Of a stretch of 51,357 bases of DNA, positions 1-25,330 are shown in pieces; the first letter of the stretch is position 1, and each line of letters begins with the position of its first letter. The stretch covers positions 345,599 to 396,955 of the forward strand of contig MU057951.1 in assembly GCA_013265495.1 (NCBI GenBank), in the 5' to 3' direction. A model generated the notes under the pieces. It made no database searches. It was not told the DNA's origin and saw nothing but the letters and a program-made list of their open reading frames with translations. The translations under genes and the position numbers were made by a program. The stretch is from Vicugna vicugna (taxonomy: Eukaryota).

Positions 1-426
1 CTGTGGGTAGGGAAGATGATAACAGTGCTTCCCTCAGAGGGGCTGGTGCGGGGGGGTGAGAAGCAGAAATGGAGGACTTACACAAGATGCTCATGAATGA
101 CTGGATTTAATGATCTCAGCCTGGTGAGGCCTCAGGAGCAGAGATGTCAGAACAGAGCAGTCCTAGCCAGAGCTCGATCCGTGTCGGCAGCTGTGATTAT
201 GATCAGTATCACCACTGTGGGTTATCAGGTAGTTTTAAGACTTCGTAATATGAATTCATGAATAATGTTAAAAGACTAGACAACTCAGATCCGGTTTACA
301 TAGTTCTCAAGATTTCCTCTGAGAAAAGGGTGTCTTTTTTCCCCAACTTAAATCTGAGTTGAGTCTGCAAAAGAATTCTGTAGTCCTCCATCTTTGTGCT
401 TTAATTCTCCATTTCTTCAAAAAATG

Positions 427-513
427 TTTTTAAATGGAGTTACTGGGGACTGAACTGAGGACCTCAAGCATACTAAACACGTGCTCTCCCAACTGAGGTA
501 TAATCTCTCCCCT
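427..513 (-). mobile_element. Short tRNA-derived SINE (camelid-type)
   Basis: T-rich tail followed by 'tactggggactgaactgaggacctc...catactaaacacgtgctctcccaactgaggtata', the reverse complement of a tRNA-like A/B-box head; similar copy near 13190. Confidence 0.7.
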
Positions 514-789
514 TTTTTTTTTAACTATTCTTTCTTAGTATTCAGTGGTTAGAGGCCTCTAATTCTTTTTCTAGAGACTTGTTCATGAACCTGGAAGTCT
601 ATAAATAATGGGCAATACGTGGCTTATTAAAAAAATCGATAGAACATTCTGCAATCCATCCAAAAGGAAAAGGTCATTGACTTAAAATGTTTCTCCTTTA
701 TGGTGATTTCTACTTTTTGGTATTACTTAATTTCTTAACAGCCATCCTCATCAACATAATGACCAAATTCGTCCTGATTGGGCACCGAC

Positions 790-955
790 CAAAGACTAAA
801 ATGCTTTCCTCATGTTTTACTTCATAGCAGGTGTTTGAGGGTAGGTATCATTGTCTCCTTTTTTGCAGCTGAGGGATTGAGAGATGGGGCAGCTTGTCCC
901 AAATCACACACAGCTGGCGGTGGCAGGCTCAGGGCTGGAACCCAGGCTGCACAGG
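790..955 (-). mobile_element. MIR SINE fragment
   Basis: 'gaggtaggtatcattgtctccttttttgcagctgaggga...cttgtcccaaatcacacagctgg...gggctggaacccagg' resembles the reverse-complement MIR core; ends approximate. Confidence 0.7.
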
Positions 956-2370
956 ATGCCTTCTCAATTGCTCCTCTAATCAGCCTCCTATTGAGTGGTT
1001 TCCCAAACCCCTGTGAGTCCATAAATGACCGATTTTAGTGATCTCAGCCTGATGAGGCCTTCAAAGGAGAGACACCAGTGAGAATGTGAGACAGAGTGGC
1101 ATAAATTAAAATTGTACATTTTCACAAATATTGTATTCTCGGCTAATGACTTTAAAAGTTAGTGTTATTTATTCTAGTGTTCTGCAAGCACTAAAAACAA
1201 AATATTAAAAATGATTAAAATGCAAAAGAAAAGTGAGCTTTGAAAGTCCAGCCACTGCTAATGACTCATTGCTTGTTTTTCTCTAGTGGTGCTTATTGAG
1301 AGAAAAATTTACAAAATATGAATTGGTTTTATGTAGTTTTAGTATGGAAGAAAAAATTGTCAGTGAATATTGAAAGTAAAATCTTGACTCTTTTCTTTCC
1401 TGATGATGAATATGTAAGTTGTTTTCCATGGCTTAAGTACATTTCCTCATTTGTGAAATTTGAGTAATGCTGTTTAACTTGTCTTGACTGTGAGAGTTAG
1501 ACGCCTTATATACAAAGCACCCAAGAGGTGCTCAATAAAAAAATGTGCTGTCACAATGACAGTTTAGAAGAATCAACTCTAAATACTAAAGAGGGTGGCT
1601 TATTTCTGATACACATTCGATATGTGTATATATAATATATATGAATATGATTTACAGTAATAAGGATTCAGTTGTTTTTTAATGCAGTATAAAGTTTTGA
1701 TGAAATCAATGTCATTCTTGTAAGATAGGGACTAGTTAAATTGCCTTAAGCAGACGACATTGAAGATTATTTACACAGAATGTTTATTTTTACAACTCAG
1801 ATTTCATATTGCCGTGTAACCATCCACTAGAACATTTAAATTTGTAGGAATATGACCAAAACCATTAATTTAGAAAAATCAACATTAAATATTTTCAGGA
1901 AATAAGCTTATCTCTGTTGTGATTGAACAAAATTTTGATTTTTTTCTGTACTCTTAATAGATTTTAAAATATCAAAACATTGATTTGACATGTCACTTTT
2001 TAAATGGAGAGAATAAAGCTCAAGATGTTTTAATACATAAATTAATCTTTTTGCATTTCAAAAGAAGTGACTGAATATAGGCATAGTACAGATCTGTTGG
2101 CATTTGACATAGTGCAAGACATGAGGACTAGGAGAGCTTTGCTGCTGATTGCCAGGAGGACAGATCCCAGGTCTCAGTCTCCTCTCCTGTAAAATGAAGA
2201 GGCTTGGCTGGATTCTTTCCTCTTTTAAGATGAGTTTCCATATGCCTATGTCTTTTGTTTATATTCAGGAGTATTATCAATTTCAGATTAAATGCTGAAT
2301 ACCGCTCTCTTCCCCGAAGCAGAATTCAGTATGTGCTAGATAAGCTTTCAGTTATCTGATTCTTCTTTCT

Positions 2371-3648
2371 TTCTTTTTTTAAATTTTATTATATATAGTC
2401 AGTTTACACTGTTGTATCAATTTCCAGTGTAGAGCACAATTTTTCAGTTATACATAAGCATGCTTATATTTGTTGTCACATTGTTCTTCACTGTGAGCTA
2501 CCACAAGATCTTGTATATGTTTTCCTGTGCTATACAGTATAATCTTGTTTATCTATTCTATATATACCTGTCAGTATCTACAAATTTAAAACTCCCCGTC
2601 GGACCCTTCTCACCCCCTTCCTCCCTGGCAATCATAAGTTTGTATTCTATGTCTATGACCCTGTTTCTGTTTTGTATTTATGTTCATTTGTCCCTTTCTT
2701 TTCTTTTTTAGATTCCACATATGAATGATCTCATATGATATTTTTCTTTCTTTTTCTGGCTTACTTCACTTAGAATGACATACTCCAGGGACATCCATGT
2801 TGCTGCAAATGGCATTATGTTGTCATTTTTATGGCTGAATAGTATTCCATTGTATAAATATACCACCTCTTCTTTATCCAGTCATCTGTCAATGGATATT
2901 TAGACTATTTCCATGTCTTAGTTATTGTAAATAGTGCTGCTATGAACGTTGGGGTGCAGGTGTCATTTTGAAGTAGGATTCCCTCTGGATATATGCCCAG
3001 GAGTGGGATTCCTGGGTCATAGGAAGTCTATTCCTAGTCTTTTCAGGAGTCTCATTACTGTTTTCCACAGTGGCTGCACCAAACTGCATTCCCACCCCAG
3101 TGTAGGAGGGTACCCTTTTCCCAACAGCCTCTCCAGCATTTGTCATTTGTGGACTTTTGAATGATGCCCATTCCGACAGGTGTGAGGTGATACCTCATTG
3201 TAGTTTTGATTTGCATTTCTCTGATAATTACTCATACTGAGCATTTTTTTCCTATGCTTATTGATCATTCATTTGTCTTCATTGGAGAATTGCTTGTTTA
3301 GGTTTTCTGCCCATTTTTGGATTGAGTTGTTTTTCTCTTACTAAGTCATATGAGCTGCTTGTATATTCTGGAGATCAAGCCTTTGTCAATTTTATCTTAT
3401 GCAAAATTTTTTTCCCATTCTGTAAGTTGTCATTTTGTTTTACTTATGGTTTCCTTTGCTGTGCAAAGCCTGTAAAATTAATTAGGTCCCATTTGTTTTT
3501 TCTTGCTTTTATTTCTATTGCTTGGGTAGACTGCCCTAGGAGAACATTTTTGAGATGTATGAGAGAAAATGTTTTGCTAATGTTTTCTTCTACGAGGTTT
3601 ATTGTATCTTCTCTTATGTTGAAGTCTTTAATCCATTTTGATTTTATT
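2371..3648 (-). mobile_element. 5'-truncated L1 (ORF2 C-terminus, 3'UTR, poly-A)
   Basis: T-tract at the left end; L1 3'UTR; ORF2 C-terminal remnant ([16 protein letters not shown]..., 2940-3146); probable TSD tgattcttctttct (2357-2370) / tgattctcgtttct (3649-3662). Confidence 0.93.
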
Positions 3649-4099
3649 TGATTCTCGTTTCTGATCCTACAGGCAATTTTTGTGTTGCATCTTTCCCGGC
3701 AACCTGGAAAGGCTATTTAGCCATAGGTGGCGGTGTTGCACCTTCTTACAGTCTTAATTTTCCTGTTTGTAAAAGAAGGCTTAAACAACGTTATTTTATT
3801 TTGATTTCCTTGCTTAATGCTTCAGGATAGCACAATGTCCATTTTGTCTGTCTACCTGGAAAAATTATTCTACTTAGATCTTACTTTTATTCTGTCATCT
3901 CACTGTGAACATTTCAGACTTGCTGTGCAAACAATGGCAAGATCGGACTTTTCTTCCAGTGTTAGAAACCAGTGAGCCAGGATTTAATTAAACAGCTAGA
4001 AGCGGCCTCTGGAGCACCTTAAAGCTGAAAAGTGTACTGAGTTCCCTAAGTATTGACCCCGCCGCTGTGTGTTAATTGGTGGGAGGTGATTTGGTACAT

Positions 4100-4305
4100 A
4101 TAGGAAGGGGTGTAGCTTTTTGACTTGGGTTTGCTTGCACGTGCTGCCACTGAGCCACGTGAACCCGAGTCAGTTCGTTCTGAGTTTTTCCCTCGTCTGT
4201 GTGATGGGGACGCTCATATCTGCTTTGTAGAATTGTGAGAATTAGAAATTATGTAAAGTGTTTACCACAGTGGGTATGTCAAGAGAGCTCATAAACTTTA
4301 GCTGC
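4100..4305 (+). mobile_element. MIR SINE fragment
   Basis: 'tctgagtttttccctcgtctgtgtgatgggga...gaattgtgagaattaga...tgtaaagtgttta' resembles the MIR core and 3' end; ends approximate. Confidence 0.6.
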
Positions 4306-5117
4306 TGTTTTGTGTGCAGCCATCATTTTATAGTCTTTGGCAATTTCTAAGAAATAGCAAAATAAGAAAGCTGGTTTTATGATGAAAGAAATTTGAAGAG
4401 GTTCCATAGTTCCTATACTCACAATTTAGCATCAGCAGAGTCAGGACCATTACACAGTCACCCTGAACCAACGTTAAGCCACAGAATTTTTTGTTAATTA
4501 GTATACGTTGGAGCTTAAGGGGACCCAAAACTTATACACATGTTTTCTCCAGCAGCCAACTGAGAGATGACACAGAAAAGCAGGTAGGCAATTAACATCT
4601 CCTTTATTACTGAGGAAGCCATGTTCTCCATGAACTTCAGGGCTCTGGGAAAATGGGTGTCATGATACTGTGTCCCAGAACTAGAGACTCACCCTGTCCC
4701 AGGTAGCTATGGGTCACAGCGAGCCTTCCCTTGAGAGGATCTGCCCCATCATGCACAGGGCTGTCCTTCCATGGAGCTGAGCATCCCTGGTGCTTCCCGA
4801 GGGTGGCCAACAAAGAAGAGAAAAGAAGATTTTCACATGCCTTGCTTGTCTCCCGGTTTCACAGCTCACTCTGTTAGTGTGAAGAGGGCTAGCTGTGGGC
4901 CAGGGGTCAGGGGTGTGAAGGGAGAAGCACTCTCCATGACCCAGAGTAGTGGGGAGGAGGTATCCCCTCCTTCAGTTTAAACAGGTGGTGGGATGGAACA
5001 GAAGGCTGCTCCCCAAGAGTTTATAAAAGGAGAAATAAGGATTTCTTTGGGAATTAGTCTAGCCGGGAAACACTGACACTGATTAGAAGGAAGACTTGTA
5101 AATCACTTTAATATTAA

Positions 5118-5176
5118 GTTAACATTTGTTGAGCACCAAAAATATGCTATATTCTTTTCTGAGCATTTTATAGAAA
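5118..5176 (-). mobile_element. MIR, left piece (split by the ERV-S provirus)
   Basis: 'aacatttgttgagcacc...ttctgagcatttta' is the reverse-complement MIR 3' end and continues after the provirus at 11597. Confidence 0.65.
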
Positions 5177-5549
5177 TGTCAGCCAAGGGAGGCTGATGTG
5201 GGGTTCTAGGAGGTGAGCGGCCCAAACGAAAAAATGCACGAGGTGTTGCCATACTGCTGGACAGACTTCAGCCAGAGACACCATGGGGTTAACAACACTT
5301 TATTGCCACAGGGAGGTGCGCCTATGATGCACCTGTCCTGCATTTTTCTGTTTTCTGTCAGCACATGTGTGGTCTGAGTTTCTTTGTTCATTAGGCTTAC
5401 AGAATATCTCTAGCACATGCGTACTTCTATTACTTTGTTCTATATATAATTGATGCATGCGTGGAGCAATTATTTACTGCATACTACAAACATGCTCTGA
5501 TCGTGGCCTTGGGTCCCACGGCCTTAACTCATCTCAACACCAGCTCACA
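5177..5549 (-). repeat. 3' LTR of the ERV-S provirus (373 bp)
   Basis: Near-identical to 11218-11596 (about 9 substitutions and 2 indels by eye); AATAAA on minus strand; adjoins the PPT. Confidence 0.97.
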
Positions 5550-5560
5550 TTCCACCCCCT
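5550..5560 (-). promoter_or_regulatory. Polypurine tract of the ERV-S provirus
   Basis: Minus strand AGGGGGTGGAA immediately before the 3' LTR, overlapping the env stop. Confidence 0.9.
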
Positions 5561-6712
5561 AGTTCGTGGGAACCCTAGCCCACTGAGTGGAGCATTGTGC
5601 CCAAAGTCCACAACAACAATACAGAGTACAGCATCCTACCAATACACAGACAGCAACAATAGCCAGGACTGTTAGGCACCATCTCCAGGAGGACGTCAAG
5701 GATGGCCACCAATTCTTAAGGGGGTCTTGAGTTACGTGATCTATGTGATCCAATTCCTGATCTATTTCATGCAGTGCCTTAGCTACTTCCTTCTGGTGAT
5801 CTGGTATACATATACAACATTCAATATGTAACATAGCACATGTGCCACCCTGGTTTGCAGTGAGAATATCTAATGCCATTCTATTCTGTAAGACTACCTT
5901 TCACATCTGGGTAGTCTCGTCTAACAATTCCTCTATAGATTTTCTAGTAACATTCAGTACAGCTGATATGTGCTGAGCTAAAGCTTCTACCTGCAATTCA
6001 ACACTGATGGTCCCAGCACTAGGCAGGAACAGGGCCATAGGATTAAACCACCAAGCTGCACGCTTCCCCCGGTGCCACCGGGTGTGCAGTGGGTCCCAAT
6101 TTGTGGGGCGTTCTGTTAAAGCGGGCCGGATATGTCTGGCAAGTAAGCTCTACACCAAGTACGGCGCCCTGTCCATTTAGCTGGGAGATAAGACCATCCG
6201 TGGGTGCCACATATCCACAGATACTCTGGTGGCAGAAAATCAGTGGATTTTGTGCCAATTAGAGGTCGTCCATTCCAGCAGGTGGAGGCATTTACATTAT
6301 AAGTAATTCTGGCACACAGCTCTTCTGGGAGCCACCCCGCTGTGCGGTTTGGAACCTCGTGTTCAAACCGCTGCTCAATACAGAGGGGGCTTAAATTCCT
6401 CACTTTCACATGAACACTATTCATACATCCCCACCCATTCCATACAGTTCTTCCAATTGTGAGGGGGCATTGCCCCGCTCACGTTGGAGTAGCTCTTCAA
6501 TAGTCTGCTGCCGCAAGCCCCAGGGCGATCTCGCTGTCCTGTTGGCATTCCATCGAATCAAGGTGCTCCAATTAGCTCTGGACGCAGGGTGGAGGTGCCA
6601 CGGCAGTCCATCTCCTGCGTCTACAGGAAGTTCAGTACAGACCCAACAGTGAGAGACGTTGTGGACTCGCGCGAATGTGTGTGCCCAGGAGAACATGGTA
6701 TCTGCTGTTACC
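5559..6712 (-). pseudogene. env: ERV-S env (gamma-type SU/TM), disrupted by about 2 frameshifts and 1 stop
   Basis: CWVC motif; furin site RGKR (6060-6071) followed by AAWWFNPMALFLPSAG; ISD LQNRMALDILTANQGGTC; CX6CC (CAMLHIECC); TM helix and Cys-rich short tail; TGA at 5901-5903. Confidence 0.93.
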
Positions 6713-9700
6713 CTGGACGGAAGGACAGAACAGAGGTGTATACTATGATTGGCAAATCTCTCCCTTCTGGGAGGATGCAAGCCACTTTCTCATCCTGTGA
6801 GAGTACGGTGGCAGGAAGTGCTGTTCGCCCTGGGCGGTAGTACCACACCAACCCGCCCGCACTAGGTTGGTTACACTCTGGGAGAGCTTCAGGAGCTATC
6901 AGTGGAATTGCCCAAAGCCTTAGGGCTTCTGCTCCTTTAAGTAGGGATGCTCCTGTTTTCCCTAGAGTAACCTGCACATCAAAAGGCCATTCCCCCACTC
7001 GTGGGGTTACCTGCAGGGCTTTCTCTAGCCCATCGCCCCATGGTTCCAAAAGGGCTAGCCAGGGGCCTTCAGTCTGGACCTGATTCTTCCATGTCCAGGT
7101 GTCCTGTTTTCCTGAGTTCAACACCCTGGGGGCGTGTAATATTAAAGCATGTCCCACTATTTAGACATCGGAGGCATCCTGCATAGACCCAACTCTGAGC
7201 CTCCGAATAGTCCCTTGCAATAACTTTTCCAGTGGGCTCATACCTGTACGGCGAAGTTGTTCATTCAAAACACGTACCGCCTGCGGCAAGACACTGTTCC
7301 AGTCTCGCCCTTGTGGTTTGAGAGCCCTCAGTTTGTCCTTTAATAGGCCATTGTACCATTCAATCATTCCTGCTGCTTGAGGACGGTAAGACACATTCAA
7401 TATCCAGTTAATATCATTTTCCTTGGCCCATTCCTGGATCTGTTGGGCAGTGAAAGGGGTCCCTCTATCACTTTGTATTTCTAAGGGAGTCCCATAGAAG
7501 GCCCGTAAAACTTCCAGTGCTCTAATAGTAGAGTCTTGTGTAGCTCGGGGCACATGCTGAGCAAAACCTAGACCAGTAGCGGTGTCTACCGCTGTCAGCA
7601 GGTACCGCAAGCCCGTACTCAGAGCAAAGGGGCCTAAGTAATCTATTTGCCATACCTGCAATGGCTGAATTCCCCGTACAATCTTCCCCATCTGTTGTGG
7701 CCATCGCCGCCAGTGCCGGTGGTGCTTAGCACACCATTGACACTGCCGCACGGCATCTTTGGCTTCACTGTGGCTCAGGTGCAGGCCCCACCGTTCAGCT
7801 ACCTGCCTCATTGTGTATGAGCCAACATGACCAAGTTTCTTATGGAGCCAGGGACCTATATCGGGTCCTGGGACCATAGCCTGTACAGGGCGGAGTTGGG
7901 CTAGCACGTCAGCAGCATCATTGCCCGGTGCCTGGGCAGGGCAGTGCCCTGGTACGTGGTAAACAGTACACTGGCCTTCTTGGCCTTTGTCCCATAACTG
8001 TTTCCACATCTGTTGTCCCCACAGGGGCCGGTGCCAAATCACCCAGTCTTGCAGGGCCCTTTGGGGTATCCACAATGTAAGGCCTTGATATATGGCCCAA
8101 CTATCAGTACAAATCTGCAAGGGGCTAGGTTCATTCATCAACACCCCCATACTGCCCGTAACTCAGCCAATTGGCTGGATTAGCCTTCTCCGGTCTCATA
8201 CCAGAAGGCTTCAGTGGCAGGGTGCAATGCTAATGCAACCCAAGTGGGCGGACTGCCCTTAAAAGATCCATCAGTATACCAAGCAGTTCCCGAGGGTGGC
8301 CCTTTCCCTTCACAAAAGGGACTGGGCACAGGGTCCACCCCTTGTTGTGGGAGCGTCTGTACATCAGGCACAACAAATTTCATAGGCCCTAACACCTGCT
8401 GCAACTCTGCAGCCAAGGGGCTAGCAGTGTACTGGGCTCTCTGTTCCAAATAAGCACCCCACTTCTTCAGAGTTGGGGTTTGGGCAGTTCCCGATCGGGG
8501 TTGCTTTGCCCATGTCTGTACCCATCCTGCAATAGGGTATGCGGTCTGTACTTGGACCTCTTGCCTCCCCGTCAGGGGTTCAGTAGCAATCAAGGATGCA
8601 TAAGTTGCTAGCAACTGTTTCTCAATCAGAGAATAACGACATTCAGCCCCTTTCCACAACTGAGACCAGAATCCTATGGGCAGTTTCCGCTGCCCATGTT
8701 TCTGCCATAAGCCCCAGCCATATCCATCATTGTCCACATGGACTGTCAACCAGAAAGGGAGGTCTGGATCTATAGTGCGCAGTGCTTGCGCTTGGGCCAC
8801 TACCCTCTTAGTTTCAACAAATGCATATTTGGTCTCATCAGACCAATTCCAGACTTCTCCCTTTTTAATCAGCTTATACAGGGGTTTGGCTATTTGGGCC
8901 AAATGAGGAATAAACACCCGCCAGTATCCCAGAAGACCTAAATAAGTCTGTAACTGTTTAACTGTTTCAGGGCGGGAATATGCCCGGATTTTGTCTATTA
9001 TTGCTTCAGGCAGCACTTTTGTCTTACCCGACCAGACAACACTCAAGAATTTGAAAGAATATTCACGTCCTTGCACTTTGTCCTCGTTCACGGCCCACCC
9101 CCAGCCCGCCAGGGCTTCTCGCAGTGCTGTGGCACTGGTTTCCAAATCTGAAAGAGAATCAGAGGTTAGCATTATGTCATCTATATAATGGAACAAGCGA
9201 ACGGTATCCGGTTTGCTCTGTGTAGCCAGGTCCTGGGCCACCAGGCCATGACACAGTGTAGGGCTGTGCAGATATCCCTGCGGCAAGACAACAAATGTCC
9301 ATTGTCTGCCTTCCCAGGTGAAGGCAAACTGTTCTTGGCTCTCAGGGGCTATGTCTATCGAGAAGAATGCATTAGCCAAGTCAACCACATAGTGACAAGT
9401 ACCCAGTTCATGGGACAGTCGGTCCATCAAATCTGTTATATTCGGCACAGCTGCATGTATGGGGGGAGTGACTTTATTCAGTTCCCGATAGTCCACTGTC
9501 ATCCTCCAGGAGCCGTCTGGCTTCCGCACCAGCCATACTGGAGAGTTATATGGGCTATGCGTAGCCCGAATTATACCGGCTTCCTCAAGCTTCAGAATAG
9601 TCTGTCCTATTTCCTCATGGCCTCCAGGCAATCAATATTGCCGGACATTCACCACTCGTGTGGCCTGTGGCAAAATCAAAGGTGCATGATGAGGATGCCC

Positions 9701-10084
9701 CCGTATAACTGTTTTCACCACACGGACTCTCAGGCGAAATTCCCCTTGAGTCGTCCGTATTTGCAATCCTTGCAAAATGTCTATCCCCAGAATGTATTCA
9801 GCTAATGGGGATATAAGCACTTCATATGCAGCAGGGAGCAGATGGCTAATGCCCAAAATCAGAGTCACTCATTTAACAAACATTTGCTTGTTTCCATATC
9901 CTTCTATATCAACCCATGGTCCCTGAAAACGCTCCGGATTTCCATGCACCAATGTAATTTCAGCTCCTGTGTCTACTAGTGCCAGCACTCGCTGTTTATT
10001 CATGGGGGACCAGTGAATAGTCAGCTCAACATGTGGCCTCCAGTCATCGGGGTGCCCCACGTCCCAAACACCTTGGCCTTCCTC
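6708..10084 (-). pseudogene. pol: ERV-S pro-pol (protease, RT, RNase H, integrase, C-terminal extension)
   Basis: LVDTGA protease; LPQG and YIDD RT; WYTDGS RNase H; HHCC and WQIDYLGP/QSDRG/MIEWYNG integrase; in-frame stops at 9869, 9632, 8180, 7161 and a frameshift near 8150. Confidence 0.96.
6712..6737 (-). promoter_or_regulatory. Predicted env splice acceptor of the ERV-S provirus
   Basis: Minus strand cctctgttctgtccttccgtccAG|G: pyrimidine tract plus CAG at the very end of pol; exon starts at 6712. Confidence 0.75.
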
Positions 10085-11150
10085 CTAGTCTGGGAGGAAA
10101 TCAGCAAAGGCCACCTCTTGGGCCTGATGGGAGGTTGGCAATGGAGTATATTGCTGCTCAGGCCGTAATTTCTTCCATAAGGCCATCAGCACATCCAATA
10201 GCTGGCCATCTAATTTTGCACGGTCCAGGCCGGCTGCCAGTAAATCACACGATATTTGCCGGCGATCTAGCTTTTGTGGCCCTCCTAAAATTGGAGCATT
10301 CCCCTTTTTCCTCCTTGGTGTGGACTTCCCTTTCTCCGTCACTGCACGGGAGGAGGGGGTCTTGGACTCACCTTGAGTCTTGGCAGCACGTACCCTCTTT
10401 CGGCGCACCTCTATGTCCCCCAGACGAGCCAGAGCCTCAGTTACTTCATGAATGGGGCGGTCTACATACGGTGCTAGTAGCGCCGCCATAGTCCCAAACG
10501 TTCACGTTGGGCCATTACCCAAAATCAAATCTTTCATTCGAGCTATAAGGAGCTTATCATCTGGACTACGGAAATACAAAGAAAATATCATGTGGCGCAT
10601 GCCCATTTCCCGGAAAACTTGCGCTAAGCCCAAATACGTGGTCCATTTACTCATATGTCACTCGCCATGGTCCCGCAGGAGTTCCCCCCTGAGCCATGGG
10701 CTCCTCCATTTCCATCTGCTGCCTCACCACTGGCCGTAGATGCAGTGGAATGGGGGGAGGGGTCGGGCTTACCGCTCCCAGGGGCGGTGGGACCGGAGCT
10801 ACACAGGCATAGATGCTCTCAGAGGTGGGGGAGCTAGGACCACACAGACATCTTTCTGCTGTGCTGGGTCTCTGCTTAAGCTCCTCTTATTTGCACTGCA
10901 ACTCCTCCACTTGCATCCGTAAATCTCTCATGTCTTGGCTAGCGTGCCGTAAAACAGATAAGATCATCCAGGCCACCCTCTCGGCTGCCTCTCAGTGGGC
11001 TAATGGGACATTATTTTCTAACAGCTCCAACGCCCTCCGGACGTCATCTGGCCGGGGCGCCACTGTGTCCCAATCCTCAGGTTGAGCCCACGTCAGCAAA
11101 GAGGCTGCCACAGGGTACCATACAGAGGTAGGGGGCCACTTTGCTTCCAT
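10085..11150 (-). pseudogene. gag: ERV-S gag, disrupted
   Basis: ATG at 11150 gives MEAKWPPTSVWYPVAASLLTW (HERV-S-like WYPVAA); C-terminal ORF 10085-10489 ends in a TAG in frame with pro. Confidence 0.85.
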
Positions 11151-11188
11151 CAGAGCATCCTCGTCAGGGGCAGGGGTTCAGAAGGGGC

Positions 11189-11197
11189 ACTCACCTC
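11189..11197 (-). promoter_or_regulatory. Predicted major splice donor of the ERV-S provirus (GAG|GTGAGT)
   Basis: Consensus donor immediately 3' of the PBS; exon ends at 11195. Confidence 0.8.
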
Positions 11198-11325
11198 ATC
11201 CTGCCGACTACGCCAAGTGTCAGCCGAGGGAGGCTGATGTGGGGTTCTAGGAAGTGAGCGGCCCAAACGAAAAAATGCACAAGGAGTTGCCATACTGCTG
11301 GACAGACTTCAGCCAGAGACACCAT
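11195..11325 (-). CDS. Putative LTR/PBS-encoded Env leader exon (43 codons plus 2 nt), MVSLAEVCPAVWQLLVHFFVWAAHFLEPHISLPRLTLGVVGRM
   Basis: Hand translation; open from ccccATGG in the LTR to the splice donor; phase matches the env acceptor; hydrophobic core. Confidence 0.6.
11198..11215 (-). promoter_or_regulatory. Primer binding site, tRNA-Ser
   Basis: TGGCGTAGTCGGCAGGAT is complementary to the tRNA-Ser 3' end (...ATCCTGCCGACTACGCCA), 2 nt from the 5' LTR. Confidence 0.95.
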
Positions 11326-11596
11326 GGGGTTAACAACACTTTATTGCCACAGGGAGGTGCGCCTATGATGCACCTGTCCTACTTTTATCTGTTTTCTGTC
11401 AGCACATGTGTGGTCTGAGTTTCTTTGTTCATTAGGCTTACAGAATATCTCTAGCACATGCATACTTCTATTTTCTTTGTTCTAAATCTTATATAATTGA
11501 TGCATGCGTGGAGCAATTATTTACTGCATACTACAAACATGCTCTGATCGTGGCCTTGGGTCCCACGGCCTTAACTCATCTCAACACCAGCTCACA
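11218..11596 (-). repeat. 5' LTR of the ERV-S provirus (379 bp)
   Basis: Direct repeat of 5177-5549; adjoins the PBS; AATAAA near 11340-11345 on minus strand. Confidence 0.97.
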
Positions 11597-22479: not shown

Positions 22480-25330
22480 AAATGCTTTTTTCAGATGAAA
22501 AATACTGTGTATTTAATATAATAAGTCTTAAAAAAGGGGGCAAAAGAGGCTATCCTGGTCCCACTACTCAGAGATAATAATTAAAACTTTAGCATCTAGT
22601 TTCTATTCTTTTCATCGGTATGTATCACCTCTGTCATAAAAACCAGCGAGCACACTGTGCCTGTTTACTGTGTGGAGACCGCCATTTTCCATTCGGCTTA
22701 TTACATGTTTTTTCTACAATATTCTATCTCCCCTGGCATGATTTTTAATGACCAGTATAGCATTCTGTCTTGTGGAAGCATCGTCCGTTTTACTTCGGAC
22801 TTAAATAAACTAAGTTCCAAGTATACTTAACTGAAATACTGAAAAGAGAACAGCGATGGTACCGAAAGGCCCCTACCTCTCTTCCCCTTATTTCCTGAGA
22901 GTAAAAGCTGTTGAAAATGTGGTGTATATATTTCATGACCTTTTTGCCTATGACATATATATATATATAACACACACAAAAACACGCATGTATATGAGAA
23001 ATCTATGTATATGTGTGTGTATATATGCTTTATTGAAAAATAAGGCCATACTATATGTTTTCTGCTGCTTGCCTTATTCACTCAGGGGTATATCATAGGC
23101 GTCCTCCCACTCCAGACTCACACGGTCCTTTCAGAGTGGAGGGGTCTCCTGATGTGCAGGTGCAGTCTCTTGTGTAAGGACACCTTTAGTGGGAGAGTGC
23201 TGTGGACAAGGCCCGGGACCACGCTGAAACGCCGACCCCTCAGTGCCCACAGCTCGCTGTGATTTAACGCATCATTGTCTTGATGGTGGACACTTAAGTT
23301 TTCTCCATTTTCCACTGTCAGAAAGGATGTTTGACTGGCATCCTTCTTGTACAGACATTCCTGTGATCTTGTATTAGTATTCCTTTAGTTAAGGCTTCTG
23401 GAAATTTAGTCCCTGTGTGAGCTGGTGTTGAGATGAGTTAAGGCCGTGGGACCCAAGGCCATGATCAGAGCATGTTTGTAGTATGCAGTAAATAATTGCT
23501 CCACGCATGCGTCAATTATATAAGATTTAGAACAAAGAAAATAGAAGTACGCATGTGCTAGAGATATTCTGTAAGCCTAATGAACAAAGAAACTCAGACC
23601 ACNNNNNNNNNNNNNNNNNNNNNNNNNNNNNNNNNNNNNNNNNNNNNNNNNNNNNNNNNNNNNNNNNNNNNNNNNNNNNNNNNNNNNNNNAGTCTGTCCA
23701 ATGGCAACACCTCGTGCATTTTTTCGTTTGGGCCGCTCACCTCCTAGAACCCCACATCAGCCTCCCTCGGCTGACACCCTGGATGTGACATTTACATTCA
23801 TCACAGGCTCCTTTCATGTGACTCTAGAAATTCCTTCTCCACTGAGGAATGAAAAGATGTAGAATAACTTATGTAACCAATTCTCTATCGCTGGATATGA
23901 TTTCACTTCAGCTTTTCTTCCCACCATTGTAAACAGCTCTGTGTAAATGCCCTGATGAGTACATCTTTTTGAGCTGATTTCTTTTTTTCTAAACGAAACA
24001 ATTCCTTGAACTGGAGTTGAGTCAGTGTGTACGCACGGTTTTTAGAGTTTACACATTTATTGACATATCGTCCTCCAAAAAGTTCTCTCACAGTTTGTTC
24101 TCCCACAGATGGACACTAGCTAGAATACGTTTTACAAATATTTGCCCATATGATGAGCAAAAGTGCCTTTTCATTGTTTTAGTTTGCATTTGATGGCCAG
24201 TGACATACTGAGCATTTTTCACTCATTAGCCATTTGAATTTTTAAAAATGAATGATCCCTTTTGTTCTTTGCACACAGTTAAGTGAGGGAGCTTATTGTT
24301 GCTTTATGACAGCTCTTTGTATGTTATGAACATTAACCCCTTGTCTTCATCAACATGTACCACGCAGCTTTTTCTTGTCATTTCTTGCCTTTCATTTTGT
24401 TCAGTAGGTTTTTTTATTTTTGTTGTGGCCCGAAATATTCTTAAGATAGTAAATGTCTTCCTTATGGGTTTTATCTTTGGTATTATTCTTAAAAATACTT
24501 TCTTATAATGGAATAATTCTCTTCTGTATGTTTTTTAATCTCTAAGATGGAGGTGATAATAGTACTTGTTATAGTGAGGGTAAGTTGAGTTAATATGAGC
24601 AAAGTGTTATATTTACTGTTATTATTACTTTTTAATATTTACATTACTATCTGTAATTTTTCCTGTCATCATTATGACAGGAATAGAATTTATTCTTTCC
24701 AGGTGATTCCCTGATTGTCCCAGGACAATTATTGAATTCATATTTATCTCTTTGATTTGAAATCCCACCTGTACAAAATACTTATGCACACTAGAGTCTC
24801 TTTTGGAGCTCATGGTTCCTTTCTGTCAATCTTCCTTTCTTATTCCAGCACCATATCTTACATATTGTAAAAAAATATTTAATATTTGACAGTGTGATTT
24901 GTTTTTGATTCTTTTCTTCCATCACAAATTTTCTTGGCCAGTATTATCACTTTATTATACCTGAAGAATTCAAAAATATTTTGCTCAAGTTAAAGAAAAT
25001 CAGATAAGAGTTTTCATGGGATATTTTAGTAAGTTTTGAATTATTTTTAGGATAACTTATATCTTTATAAAACTGCCTTCCTCCATACAATATGTTGATG
25101 TCTCTACATTTACACCTCTTATTTTATCCTACAGTACAGTCCTGTAGTTTTTTTCATTTAAAACATGGGCATAATTTTTGAGTTTATTCCAGATTATTGT
25201 TTATGTTTTTGTTATTTTTGTAAGTGAGAATTGTTTTCTATTGTATTTTCTAACTGCTTAAAACTGACACCTAGAATGGCAGATTCAGTTTGTAAATACT
25301 CACTTTGTAACTTGCCATTTAAAATTGGAA
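22480..25330 (-). mobile_element. Highly decayed ancient L1 (L1ME-like) fragments, interrupted by a solo LTR
   Basis: Patches such as 'tcattgttttagtttgcattt', 'tgagcatttttcactcattagccattt', 'gatggtggacacttaagttttctcca'; boundaries approximate. Confidence 0.6.
23416..23776 (+). mobile_element. Solo LTR of the ERV-S family (contains an 88-N assembly gap)
   Basis: Reverse complement of the 11218-11596 LTR; TG...CA ends; 5-bp TSD CCCTG (23411-23415, 23777-23781); N run 23603-23690. Confidence 0.93.

Follow-up and report, generated by a model that had tools for sequence, protein, structure and literature searches.

The stretch of DNA analyzed here, called the window throughout, is 51,357 nucleotides (nt) of contig MU057951.1 from Vicugna vicugna. 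On its minus strand it carries a decayed endogenous retrovirus (ERV) whose long terminal repeats (LTRs) occupy 11596-11216 (5') and 5549-5174 (3'). These align as 11215-11472 with 5174-5431 (97% over 258 nt) and as 11490-11596 with 5443-5549 (100% over 107 nt). Between them gag is degraded, pol reads through reverse transcriptase (RT), RNase H and integrase (Pfam RVT_1, RT_RNaseH, RNase_H and rve) to a TAA stop at 6710-6708, and env is the subject of this report. We observed that the exon carrying the body of the envelope protein (Env) has neither a start codon nor a signal peptide, and we propose, at a probability of roughly 0.65, that the Env of this family is pieced together by splicing from three exons or more. 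The features concerned are collected in Table 1.

The provirus is probably of the ERV-S/HERVS type, an assignment that rests on its primer-binding site (PBS), its gene content and an orangutan relative rather than on an RT phylogeny. The PBS pattern has 11 exact matches in the host genome; two were fetched and scanned, and ARAGORN called tRNA-Ser(aga) at both loci. The 149-amino-acid (aa) tail of pol (6708-7157) matches no Pfam family at an E value of ≤0.01; hence, no dUTPase follows the integrase. By a TLV_coat match (E = 2.9e-05) and the landmarks in Table 1, env is class I, PABL-like and gamma-type, and homologues of this Env bear the NCBI name "ERV group PABLB member 1 Env." A first look at the host genome gave at least 279 matches to the U5/PBS segment, of which 40 were scored and 30 fetched. 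The env acceptor was compared in 30 host copies (82 to 100% identity) and the mini-exon described below in 20 further copies. A sequence-only reading of this DNA had placed an AATAAA signal, an ATG at 11325, the PBS, a splice donor and an acceptor, and we confirmed the position of every one, on the minus strand.

Table 1. Features of the provirus and of the predicted env exons (window coordinates)
Feature	Position	Strand	Remarks
5' LTR	11216..11596	-	about 2% divergence from the 3' copy (5174-5549)
AATAAA poly(A) signal	11340..11345	-	15 nt 5' of the U5 ATG
ATG1	11323..11325	-	context ccccATGg; env frame (phase 2 at donor); NCBI camelid models P0002, P0003 and P0087 start here
ATG2	11291..11293	-	context agtATGg; gag frame (phase 0 at donor)
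Primer-binding site	11198..11215	-	complements the host tRNA-Ser(AGA) 3' end plus CCA, 18/18
ATG3	11197..11199	-	last two PBS bases plus G, 5 nt before donor; env frame
Major splice donor, GAG/GTGAGT	11189..11197	-	exon 1 ends at 11195; same junction in P0002
Conventional gag ATG (MEAKWPP...)	11148..11150	-	3' of the major splice donor
Mini-exon acceptor	9148..9170	-	CTAAC branch-like motif 9169-9165, pyrimidine tract, AG 9149-9148
Mini-exon, 120 nt	9028..9147	-	within RVT_1, just 3' of YIDD (HYIDDIML), one base off the pol frame
Mini-exon donor, CGG/GTAAGAC	9021..9027	-	GT 9027-9026
Env-body acceptor	6713..6736	-	pyrimidine tract, AG 6714-6713; exon start 6712
Env body exon	5559..6712	-	gamma-type, without receptor-binding domain; stop 5561-5559
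CWVC	6648-6637	-	env landmark
RGKR	6071-6060	-	env landmark
LQNRMALD	5891-5868	-	env landmark
CX6CC	5840-5814	-	env landmark
Membrane anchor	5687-5628	-	env landmark

The env body exon opens at an acceptor reading cctctgttctgtccttccgtccAG/G, its first base lying 3 nt before the pol stop. From there the env frame runs VTADTMFSW and on to CWVC; the open reading frame (ORF) that contains it begins after a stop with TTG at 6780. The acceptor AG is kept in 28 of 30 copies. In 27 of the 30 the env frame is closed by a stop no more than 27 codons 5' of the acceptor, the other three being frameshifted upstream. Across the 30 copies, no ATG is conserved in the stretch between that stop and the acceptor (ESGLHPPRRERFANHGVHLCSVLPSR), nor is this stretch hydrophobic. 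The only methionine within the exon ahead of CWVC, that of MFSW, is Met in 17 copies, Val in 6, Ile in 5, Lys in 1 and Thr in 1, and the position is Val or Ile in all four of the oldest copies. The sequence-only reading had held that the env exon lacks a start codon and a signal peptide of its own. This proved true of the family: none of the 30 copies has either.

No copy of env is intact (0 of 30). The window's own copy has two frameshifts, near 6430 and near 6100, plus stops, and the breaks fall at different places in different copies. Was this Env ever functional? By the Nei-Gojobori method, dN/dS was 0.31 for the surface subunit (SU) when the best-kept old copy was compared with a young copy over natural open stretches, and 0.35 to 0.45 for old against young copies with natural copies as the ruler. 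Old copies compared with each other gave 0.34 to 0.53 in SU. The transmembrane subunit (TM) gave 0.18 to 0.28 for old against young, and young copies compared with each other gave 0.66 to 0.76. We conclude that Env was functional and under purifying selection while the lineages diverged. Hence, a start codon and a signal for the endoplasmic reticulum must have existed.

One stretch of SU, a run of C/P codons (..GNAPP..; window 6440-6480, minus strand; homologous in copies L031-L060), is a hot spot for insertions and deletions. After it, copies are found in all three frames, reading ..ELYGMGGD followed by a stop, ..NWKDCMEWV.. or ..GRTVWNGWGWMNSV..; only the last of these leads on into the rest of SU.

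A candidate for the missing signal lies within RT. The 120-nt mini-exon, read one base off the pol frame, encodes a peptide that ends ...RTWIFCQILGCCLVG and would be followed directly by /VTANT... of the env exon. Among the 20 further host copies, the acceptor AG is present in 19 and the donor GT in all 20; the length is 120 nt in 16, and one more has an in-frame deletion of 6 nt. The env frame across the mini-exon is stop-free in 11 of the 20. It contains no Met in 16, the remainder being two copies with a private Met and two that are frameshifted. The last 14 residues of the mini-exon are the most hydrophobic part of the whole Env precursor, with a Kyte-Doolittle peak over 11 residues of 2.47 (IFCQILGCCLV) versus 1.82 for the U5 peptide, and they end in CLVG/V at the junction. 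The segment from ATG3 to this hydrophobic core has 5 K+R versus 1 D+E. The mini-exon peptide directly adjoins SU, and CWVC starts 21 residues past the junction of exons 2 and 3. A positively charged n-region, a hydrophobic core and small residues at the putative cleavage site make this peptide the predicted signal peptide of Env.

Does the divergence of the mini-exon bear the mark of two reading frames? We compared 55 pairs of old and young copies. Synonymous difference in the pol frame was 0.128 in the mini-exon, 0.274 in the 5' flank and 0.343 in the 3' flank, while raw distances were 0.123, 0.127 and 0.136, respectively. In the env frame, the ratio of nonsynonymous to synonymous differences (pN/pS) was 0.56 in the mini-exon, 1.15 in the 5' flank and 0.76 in the 3' flank. 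This is the pattern expected of dual coding, of an Env exon overprinted on RT; since the pairs are non-independent and the region has only 40 codons, the signal is supportive and not proof.

The Trp codon of the predicted signal peptide (..ART W IF..; window 9066-9064) is TGA in the window's copy and in 4 of the 20 others (L065, L070, L078 and L081), one of them old; read as pol, the same change replaces Gly by Glu. The change is either recurrent or the mark of a lineage whose Env signal was disabled.

Because no ATG precedes SU in either the mini-exon or the env exon, translation would have to start in exon 1, 5' of the major donor. The ATG1 frame translates as MVSLAEVCPAVWQLLVHFFVWAAHFLEPHISLPRLTLGVVGRMR followed by a stop, runs 131 nt to the donor and reaches it in phase 2, which matches the phase of the acceptor at 6712, as had been noted from the letters alone. 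If the RNA is left unspliced, the frame that ATG1 and ATG3 share ends at once (ATG AGG TGA). In such RNA, ATG1 opens an upstream ORF (uORF) of 44 codons and ATG3 one of 2 codons, with a common end at the TGA just past the donor. Also as noted earlier, the 3' LTR (5284-5177) keeps the LTR part of this frame open. So, in part, does 23702-23776 (plus strand), a solo or partial family LTR that points the other way, where the frame is readable from WQHLVHFF to LPRLT. The border of R and U5 is probably the CA of ccCAtgg.

Conservation of this leader was as follows. ATG1 is kept in 28 of 30 LTR copies, and in 85 of the 100 matches listed, out of 176, for the older LTR subfamily. Of the 14 copies that extend as far as the donor, 12 keep all 44 codons uninterrupted (GTG replaces the ATG in one of these), one is frameshifted and one has a stop. 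None of the 16 copies that consist of LTR only has a stop before the LTR ends. All 14 young copies share an identical donor, and 3 of 3 old ones have it as well, once as CAG/GTGAGT. The ATG3 codon is Met in 12 of 12 uninterrupted frames and also in L061 and L064, while L062 has ATC; ATG3 is found in all three types of LTR, including old LTRs that have no env-frame ATG1. Aligning the family was a check set by the sequence-only reading, and on these counts and that of the env acceptor the arrangement is no private defect of the window's copy. ATG3 had gone unremarked in that reading.

The second ATG of exon 1, ATG2, belongs to another frame. From ATG2 the frame is open through the PBS, the donor and the leader to the start of gag (ME[AT][KM]WPP) in 13 of 15 copies examined. 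The loci concerned are window 11293-11148 (minus strand), L003-L014, L061, L062 and L064; a private frameshift breaks the frame in the window's copy and in L002. By its openness, this frame could give a Gag with an extended N terminus, whose ORF would include the PBS, as happens in yeast Ty1. In the gag frame, the stretch from the donor to the gag ATG has a pN/pS of 1.09, and beyond its openness an extended Gag is not supported. The N terminus of the orangutan model described below and the window's gag-frame U5 peptide share 11 of 31 residues (E = 0.065, a single comparison), which is suggestive only.

Do public gene models join these pieces? A phmmer search of 1.84 billion representative proteins with a natural 220-aa SU query (L040:1648-2307) gave 83 hits at an E value of ≤0.001. 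NCBI models made up the top three: XP_032353004.1 (176 aa) and XP_032353003.1 (243 aa), both from Camelus ferus, and one from Camelus dromedarius. A further model, P0087 of Vicugna pacos (304 aa, 5 member sequences), came from a word-index search. Those of C. ferus and alpaca have the same order: the U5 ORF (MVSPAEVCPAVWQLLVHFFVWAAHLLEPHISLPRLTLGVAGRM), the mini-exon and VTANTMFSW..CWVC. On the window, tblastn placed the pieces of P0002 at 11325-11194, 9149-9027 and 6711-6463. The mini-exon is part of each of the three camelid models with a start at ATG1, and none joins exon 1 to exon 3 directly. A sloth Env model (426 aa, one of those with the PABLB name) begins MGDKLKQITRAWTVCQIFGCYLIG/TVGNTF..CWVC, and an orangutan HERV-S-type model reads ..PRAWIICEILGSYLVR/LTCSN..CWIC; both N termini align with the mini-exon peptide, which suggests that they too are read from sequence overlapping RT. 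The link between exons 2 and 3 is thus seen in models from three mammalian orders.

Other searches around these models were less productive. A protein search with P0002 for shorter lengths gave no candidate, and one with P0087 for longer lengths gave none at an E value of ≤0.001 among 862 candidates; hence, these searches yielded neither ORFs from transcript assemblies that span the junctions nor any longer model. Two Logan proteins, P0005 (431 aa) and P0086 (544 aa), on contigs of 9438 and 2687 nt, were considered as Envs with a 32-residue signal and rejected: by eye, their N termini resemble the C terminus of pol running into env. The contig of about 9.4 kb carries an uninterrupted Env homologue (35% identity over SU), with the C terminus of pol seemingly in frame with env, and its virus may be a much better preserved relative. 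At the place expected for the 5' LTR of one old provirus (L063) there was no LTR match. Public RNA runs hold 0.13 to 0.23 of the sampled words, and the four best by word share come from one study labeled "reproductive system metagenome"; the shares are no evidence of expression or tissue.

These observations suggest the following arrangement. Exon 1 would be the R-U5-PBS leader with its start codon, ending at GAG/GTGAGT (11195). Exon 2 would be the mini-exon, overprinted on RT in another frame and supplying the signal peptide. Exon 3 would be the env body from 6712, with mature SU starting at the junction of exons 2 and 3. The Env start would then lie 5' of the major donor, as in avian leukosis virus (ALV), but outside the gag frame. 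What we observed directly are the sequence and its frames, the splice motifs and their conservation, the selection on env and on the mini-exon, and public models that contain the junctions; from these we infer that a three-exon mRNA is made in vivo, and which ATG serves it.

The sequence-only reading had made the U5/att/PBS region the Env leader exon. The donor and the acceptor, both of them used in public models, the phase and the need for an upstream start codon stand, and with models beginning at 11325 the start may well be the ATG it named; two parts of that proposal are not supported. Its suggestion that the region doubles as a uORF ahead of gag holds in a formal sense, by the frames of 44 and 2 codons given above. 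The reading had exon 1 spliced directly from 11195 to 6712, and all three ATG1-starting models insert the 120-nt exon 9147-9028 instead. It also took the U5/PBS peptide for the signal peptide, whereas the hydrophobic core and the predicted cleavage site lie in the mini-exon, in a peptide homologous to the N termini of related Envs.

Several points weigh against the three-exon reading as we have stated it. Exon 1 is poor in A (22 of 131 nt), two of its three frames are open, and the four stop triplets 3' of 11293 are all in the third; for these reasons, the open U5 frame is weak evidence by itself. The codon-level bias in U5 that had been proposed as a check did not appear: between old and young LTRs, the env, gag and closed frames had pN/pS of 0.71, 0.65 and 0.99, respectively (75 nt, non-independent pairs), values that show no codon-level constraint on the U5 frame. 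LTRs that lack an env-frame ATG1, described below, mean that ATG1 is no general requirement, and in the young family the strong context of ATG2, whose frame overlaps ATG3, would hamper the use of ATG3. Exon 1 of the NCBI models could be an ab initio extension to the first in-frame ATG. This is made less likely by the fact that exon 1 ends at a consensus-like donor conserved in every copy examined. The likeness of mini-exon peptides across orders is partly forced, because the overlapping RT motif (..KFLG.VW in the pol frame) is itself conserved. Finally, the window's copy is dead, its mini-exon broken by a stop and its env by frameshifts and further stops, and our conclusions concern the family.

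Which ATG would serve Env? Exon 1 offers two ATGs in the env frame: ATG1, which the predicted mRNA would present as its first AUG, has C at -3 and G at +4, and ATG3 has A at -3. ATG2, with A at -3 and G at +4, lies between them in the young family, where its frame ends within the mini-exon. The presequence would be 84 residues long from ATG1, which adds 43, and 42 from ATG3.

The older LTR subfamily shows how ATG1 varies. In 30 of its matches, the distance from the ATG to the conserved TTGGGCAGCTCAC anchor in U5 is 42 nt in 18 and 62 nt in 8, with one each at 43, 63, 72 and 74 nt. The single-unit form has one ATG, in the gag frame; it accounts for those 18 and includes both LTRs of the provirus with the best-kept SU. 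In the 62- and 74-nt forms, and in a form longer by 32 nt (L064 and the window), the ATG-bearing unit is duplicated and the first ATG is in the env frame. The duplications add 20 nt in 8 of the 30 and 32 nt in 1 of the 30 and in L064. That both place the extra ATG in the env frame has a chance of about 1 in 9 for independent events and about 1 in 3 for related ones.

Perhaps Env starts at ATG3 only and has no need of ATG1, which would be there by accident, either tolerated because it is in frame or opening a uORF on genomic RNA? This variant of the three-exon reading is a serious contender, though we hold it to fall somewhat short of even odds. ATG3 occurs in all LTR types, including single-unit LTRs that have no env-frame ATG1, and it has A at -3. 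The product from ATG3 would be a textbook long signal peptide, with 27 residues (5 K+R, 1 D+E), a core of 13 to 14 residues and G at -1; a second hydrophobic stretch ahead of the real signal, such as ATG1 would add, is unusual. The absence of codon-level constraint on the U5 frame argues in the same direction. Set against it are the position of ATG1 as first AUG, the intervening strong-context, out-of-frame ATG2 with its overlap of ATG3, and the fact that both U5 duplications put the extra ATG in the env frame. Our estimate is an ancestral start at ATG3, with ATG1 in use as well in those LTRs that have it.

A different doubt concerns the exons themselves, which might be cryptic splicing of transcripts from dead ERVs, or annotation artefacts, with the ancestral Env start elsewhere (a non-AUG codon in the mini-exon, or an unseen exon). 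Two dromedary models lend this some color. P0001 and P0084 are odd in that they read the mini-exon region (window 9148-9020) in the pol frame, followed by 36 residues antisense to the leader and gag start (11021-11128, plus strand) and then env at the same acceptor; they may reflect a rearranged copy or a model artefact. In addition, the position of the sloth model's ATG is mostly GTG in camelid copies. But the exon 2-to-exon 3 link recurs in the models of three orders, the four splice sites are consensus-like and conserved, the suppression of synonymous change in pol is confined to the mini-exon, and purifying selection on Env demands some N-terminal signal. We therefore regard this explanation as unlikely.

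The direct splice from exon 1 to 6712, with the U5/PBS peptide (hydrophobic AVWQLLVHFFVWAAHLL) as the signal peptide itself, fares somewhat worse, and we consider it improbable. It is mechanically sound: 131 nt in phase 2 plus 1 give an in-frame join, and since the length of the mini-exon is divisible by three, the frame survives when it is skipped. The U5 peptide does have a hydrophobic stretch (the peak of 1.82), and ATG1 is widely kept in young and older LTRs. However, the three ATG1-starting models all contain the mini-exon, and in related Env models the homologous signal is the mini-exon peptide. Dual-coding constraint is seen on the mini-exon and not on the U5 frame, the charges in the n-region of the U5 peptide cancel out (2 K+R, 2 D+E), and single-unit LTRs have no ATG1 in the env frame. 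Weakest of all, and hardly credible, is the idea that env is an N-terminally truncated, nonfunctional relic of a family that spread without Env, its upstream ORFs being meaningless: the lack of an intact env and of a contiguous start or signal would fit, but dN/dS is 0.2 to 0.45 when subfamilies are compared and about 0.7 among young copies, three-point subtraction gives a dN of 0.030 and a dS of 0.111 for the terminal branch to the best-kept old copy, and the breaks differ in place among copies.

A wider form of the three-exon proposal can be put forward tentatively, and as a whole we think it doubtful. ERV-S-type viruses of placental mammals (camelid, orangutan, sloth) might make Env from an mRNA of at least three exons, with the signal overprinted on RT. 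In camelids, a U5 duplication of 20 to 32 nt might have created a dedicated Env AUG at the R/U5 border, and U5 plus PBS might be translated in two frames, as an Env presequence from ATG1 and as a Gag-frame ORF from ATG2 that passes through the PBS and the donor into gag.

If the three-exon proposal is true, it describes a new way of building env, with the signal peptide on RT and the AUG in the leader. It would explain why HERVS-type env appears to "lack" its N terminus in genome scans and consensus reconstructions. It would impose dual-coding constraints on RT and on U5/PBS, and it would give a concrete annotation rule for complete Env ORFs of the ERV-S-type lineage. The three exons can be looked for directly in existing RNA-seq data.

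Searches of Creative Commons-licensed full texts in PMC and bioRxiv turned up no account of an env signal exon that is spliced, embedded in pol or overprinted on RT, and none of an ERV-S env that starts in the LTR or PBS, in keeping with the sequence-only reading, which knew of no spliced start of this kind for ERV-S. HERVS (HERV18/LTR18) is given in passages of Vargiu et al. (2016, PMC4724089) as class III with a class I envelope related to PABL/PRIMA41/HERV1_Artiodact and no dUTPase; those same passages contain no description of an Env start or a spliced signal exon. A dUTPase after the integrase is absent, unlike in ERV-L, according to parts of PMC4724089 and PMC8278194, and part of a primate-wide reconstruction also has HERVS Env clustering with class I (bioRxiv 10.1101/2024.10.28.620668). 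As far as these passages describe HERVS, its gene content is that of the provirus studied here, and the orangutan model has the same link from mini-exon to env.

Two other elements of ERV-S name are built differently, to judge from portions of the papers that describe them. ERV-S.1-Dbi of the black rhinoceros has gag, pol and env in one frame, separated by stops, and an alpha-like Env with a SIRP-like domain (Hotzel, bioRxiv 10.1101/2024.03.17.585361), an env type that differs from the gamma-type env of our provirus. XtERV-S of Xenopus is class III with a class I type env (CWIC, a furin site and an immunosuppressive domain) and spliced RNA; a single splice joins 576 to 5928, and the spliced env transcript reportedly does not contain the PBS (PMC8278194, in part). 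The XtERV-S env brings a start codon, which overlaps the pol stop, and a 19-residue signal peptide (PMC8278194), whereas the env exon described here has neither. Sections of the Hotzel preprint (bioRxiv 10.1101/2024.03.17.585361) place CXXC 21 to 35 residues from the mature N terminus in gamma-type Envs without a receptor-binding domain (EnvR supergroup groups 1 and 2, syncytin-2 type). The 21 residues between our exon junction and CWVC fit that range as those sections give it. The Envs compared there were, by the same sections, chosen for contiguous N-terminal signals, whereas here the signal would be on a separate exon.

Retroviral Env is usually described as encoded by one exon with its own signal peptide. 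Long Env signal or leader peptides of 40 to 130 residues are found in mouse mammary tumor virus (Rem/Env), jaagsiekte sheep retrovirus, HERV-K and foamy virus; these are contiguous with env, some with functions of their own, whereas the predicted leader of 42 or 84 residues would be spliced. We know of none of them that is assembled from a leader exon and a pol-embedded exon. Short exons within or at the end of pol are familiar from the multiply spliced mRNAs of complex retroviruses, such as exons 2 and 3 of human immunodeficiency virus type 1 and the tax-rex exon 2, with the env AUG, of human T-cell leukemia virus and bovine leukemia virus. The predicted mRNA resembles them in this respect, but their exons are noncoding or serve accessory proteins, whereas the mini-exon would encode Env's own signal peptide, on RT.

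The closest precedent is ALV and Rous sarcoma virus, the textbook exception to single-exon Env, in which Env starts at the gag AUG and six gag codons are spliced in frame onto env. In our family, too, an AUG 5' of the major donor would be in the env frame after splicing, and the frame is continuous in P0002 and P0087. The gag-frame ATG2, however, meets the donor in phase 0 and is out of frame into the mini-exon, so the start would not be shared with gag. ALV thus uses a gag AUG that lies 3' of the PBS and a single splice, whereas the Env proposed here would start at AUGs that are off the gag frame, one at the R/U5 border and one at the end of the PBS, and would acquire a mini-exon on the way.

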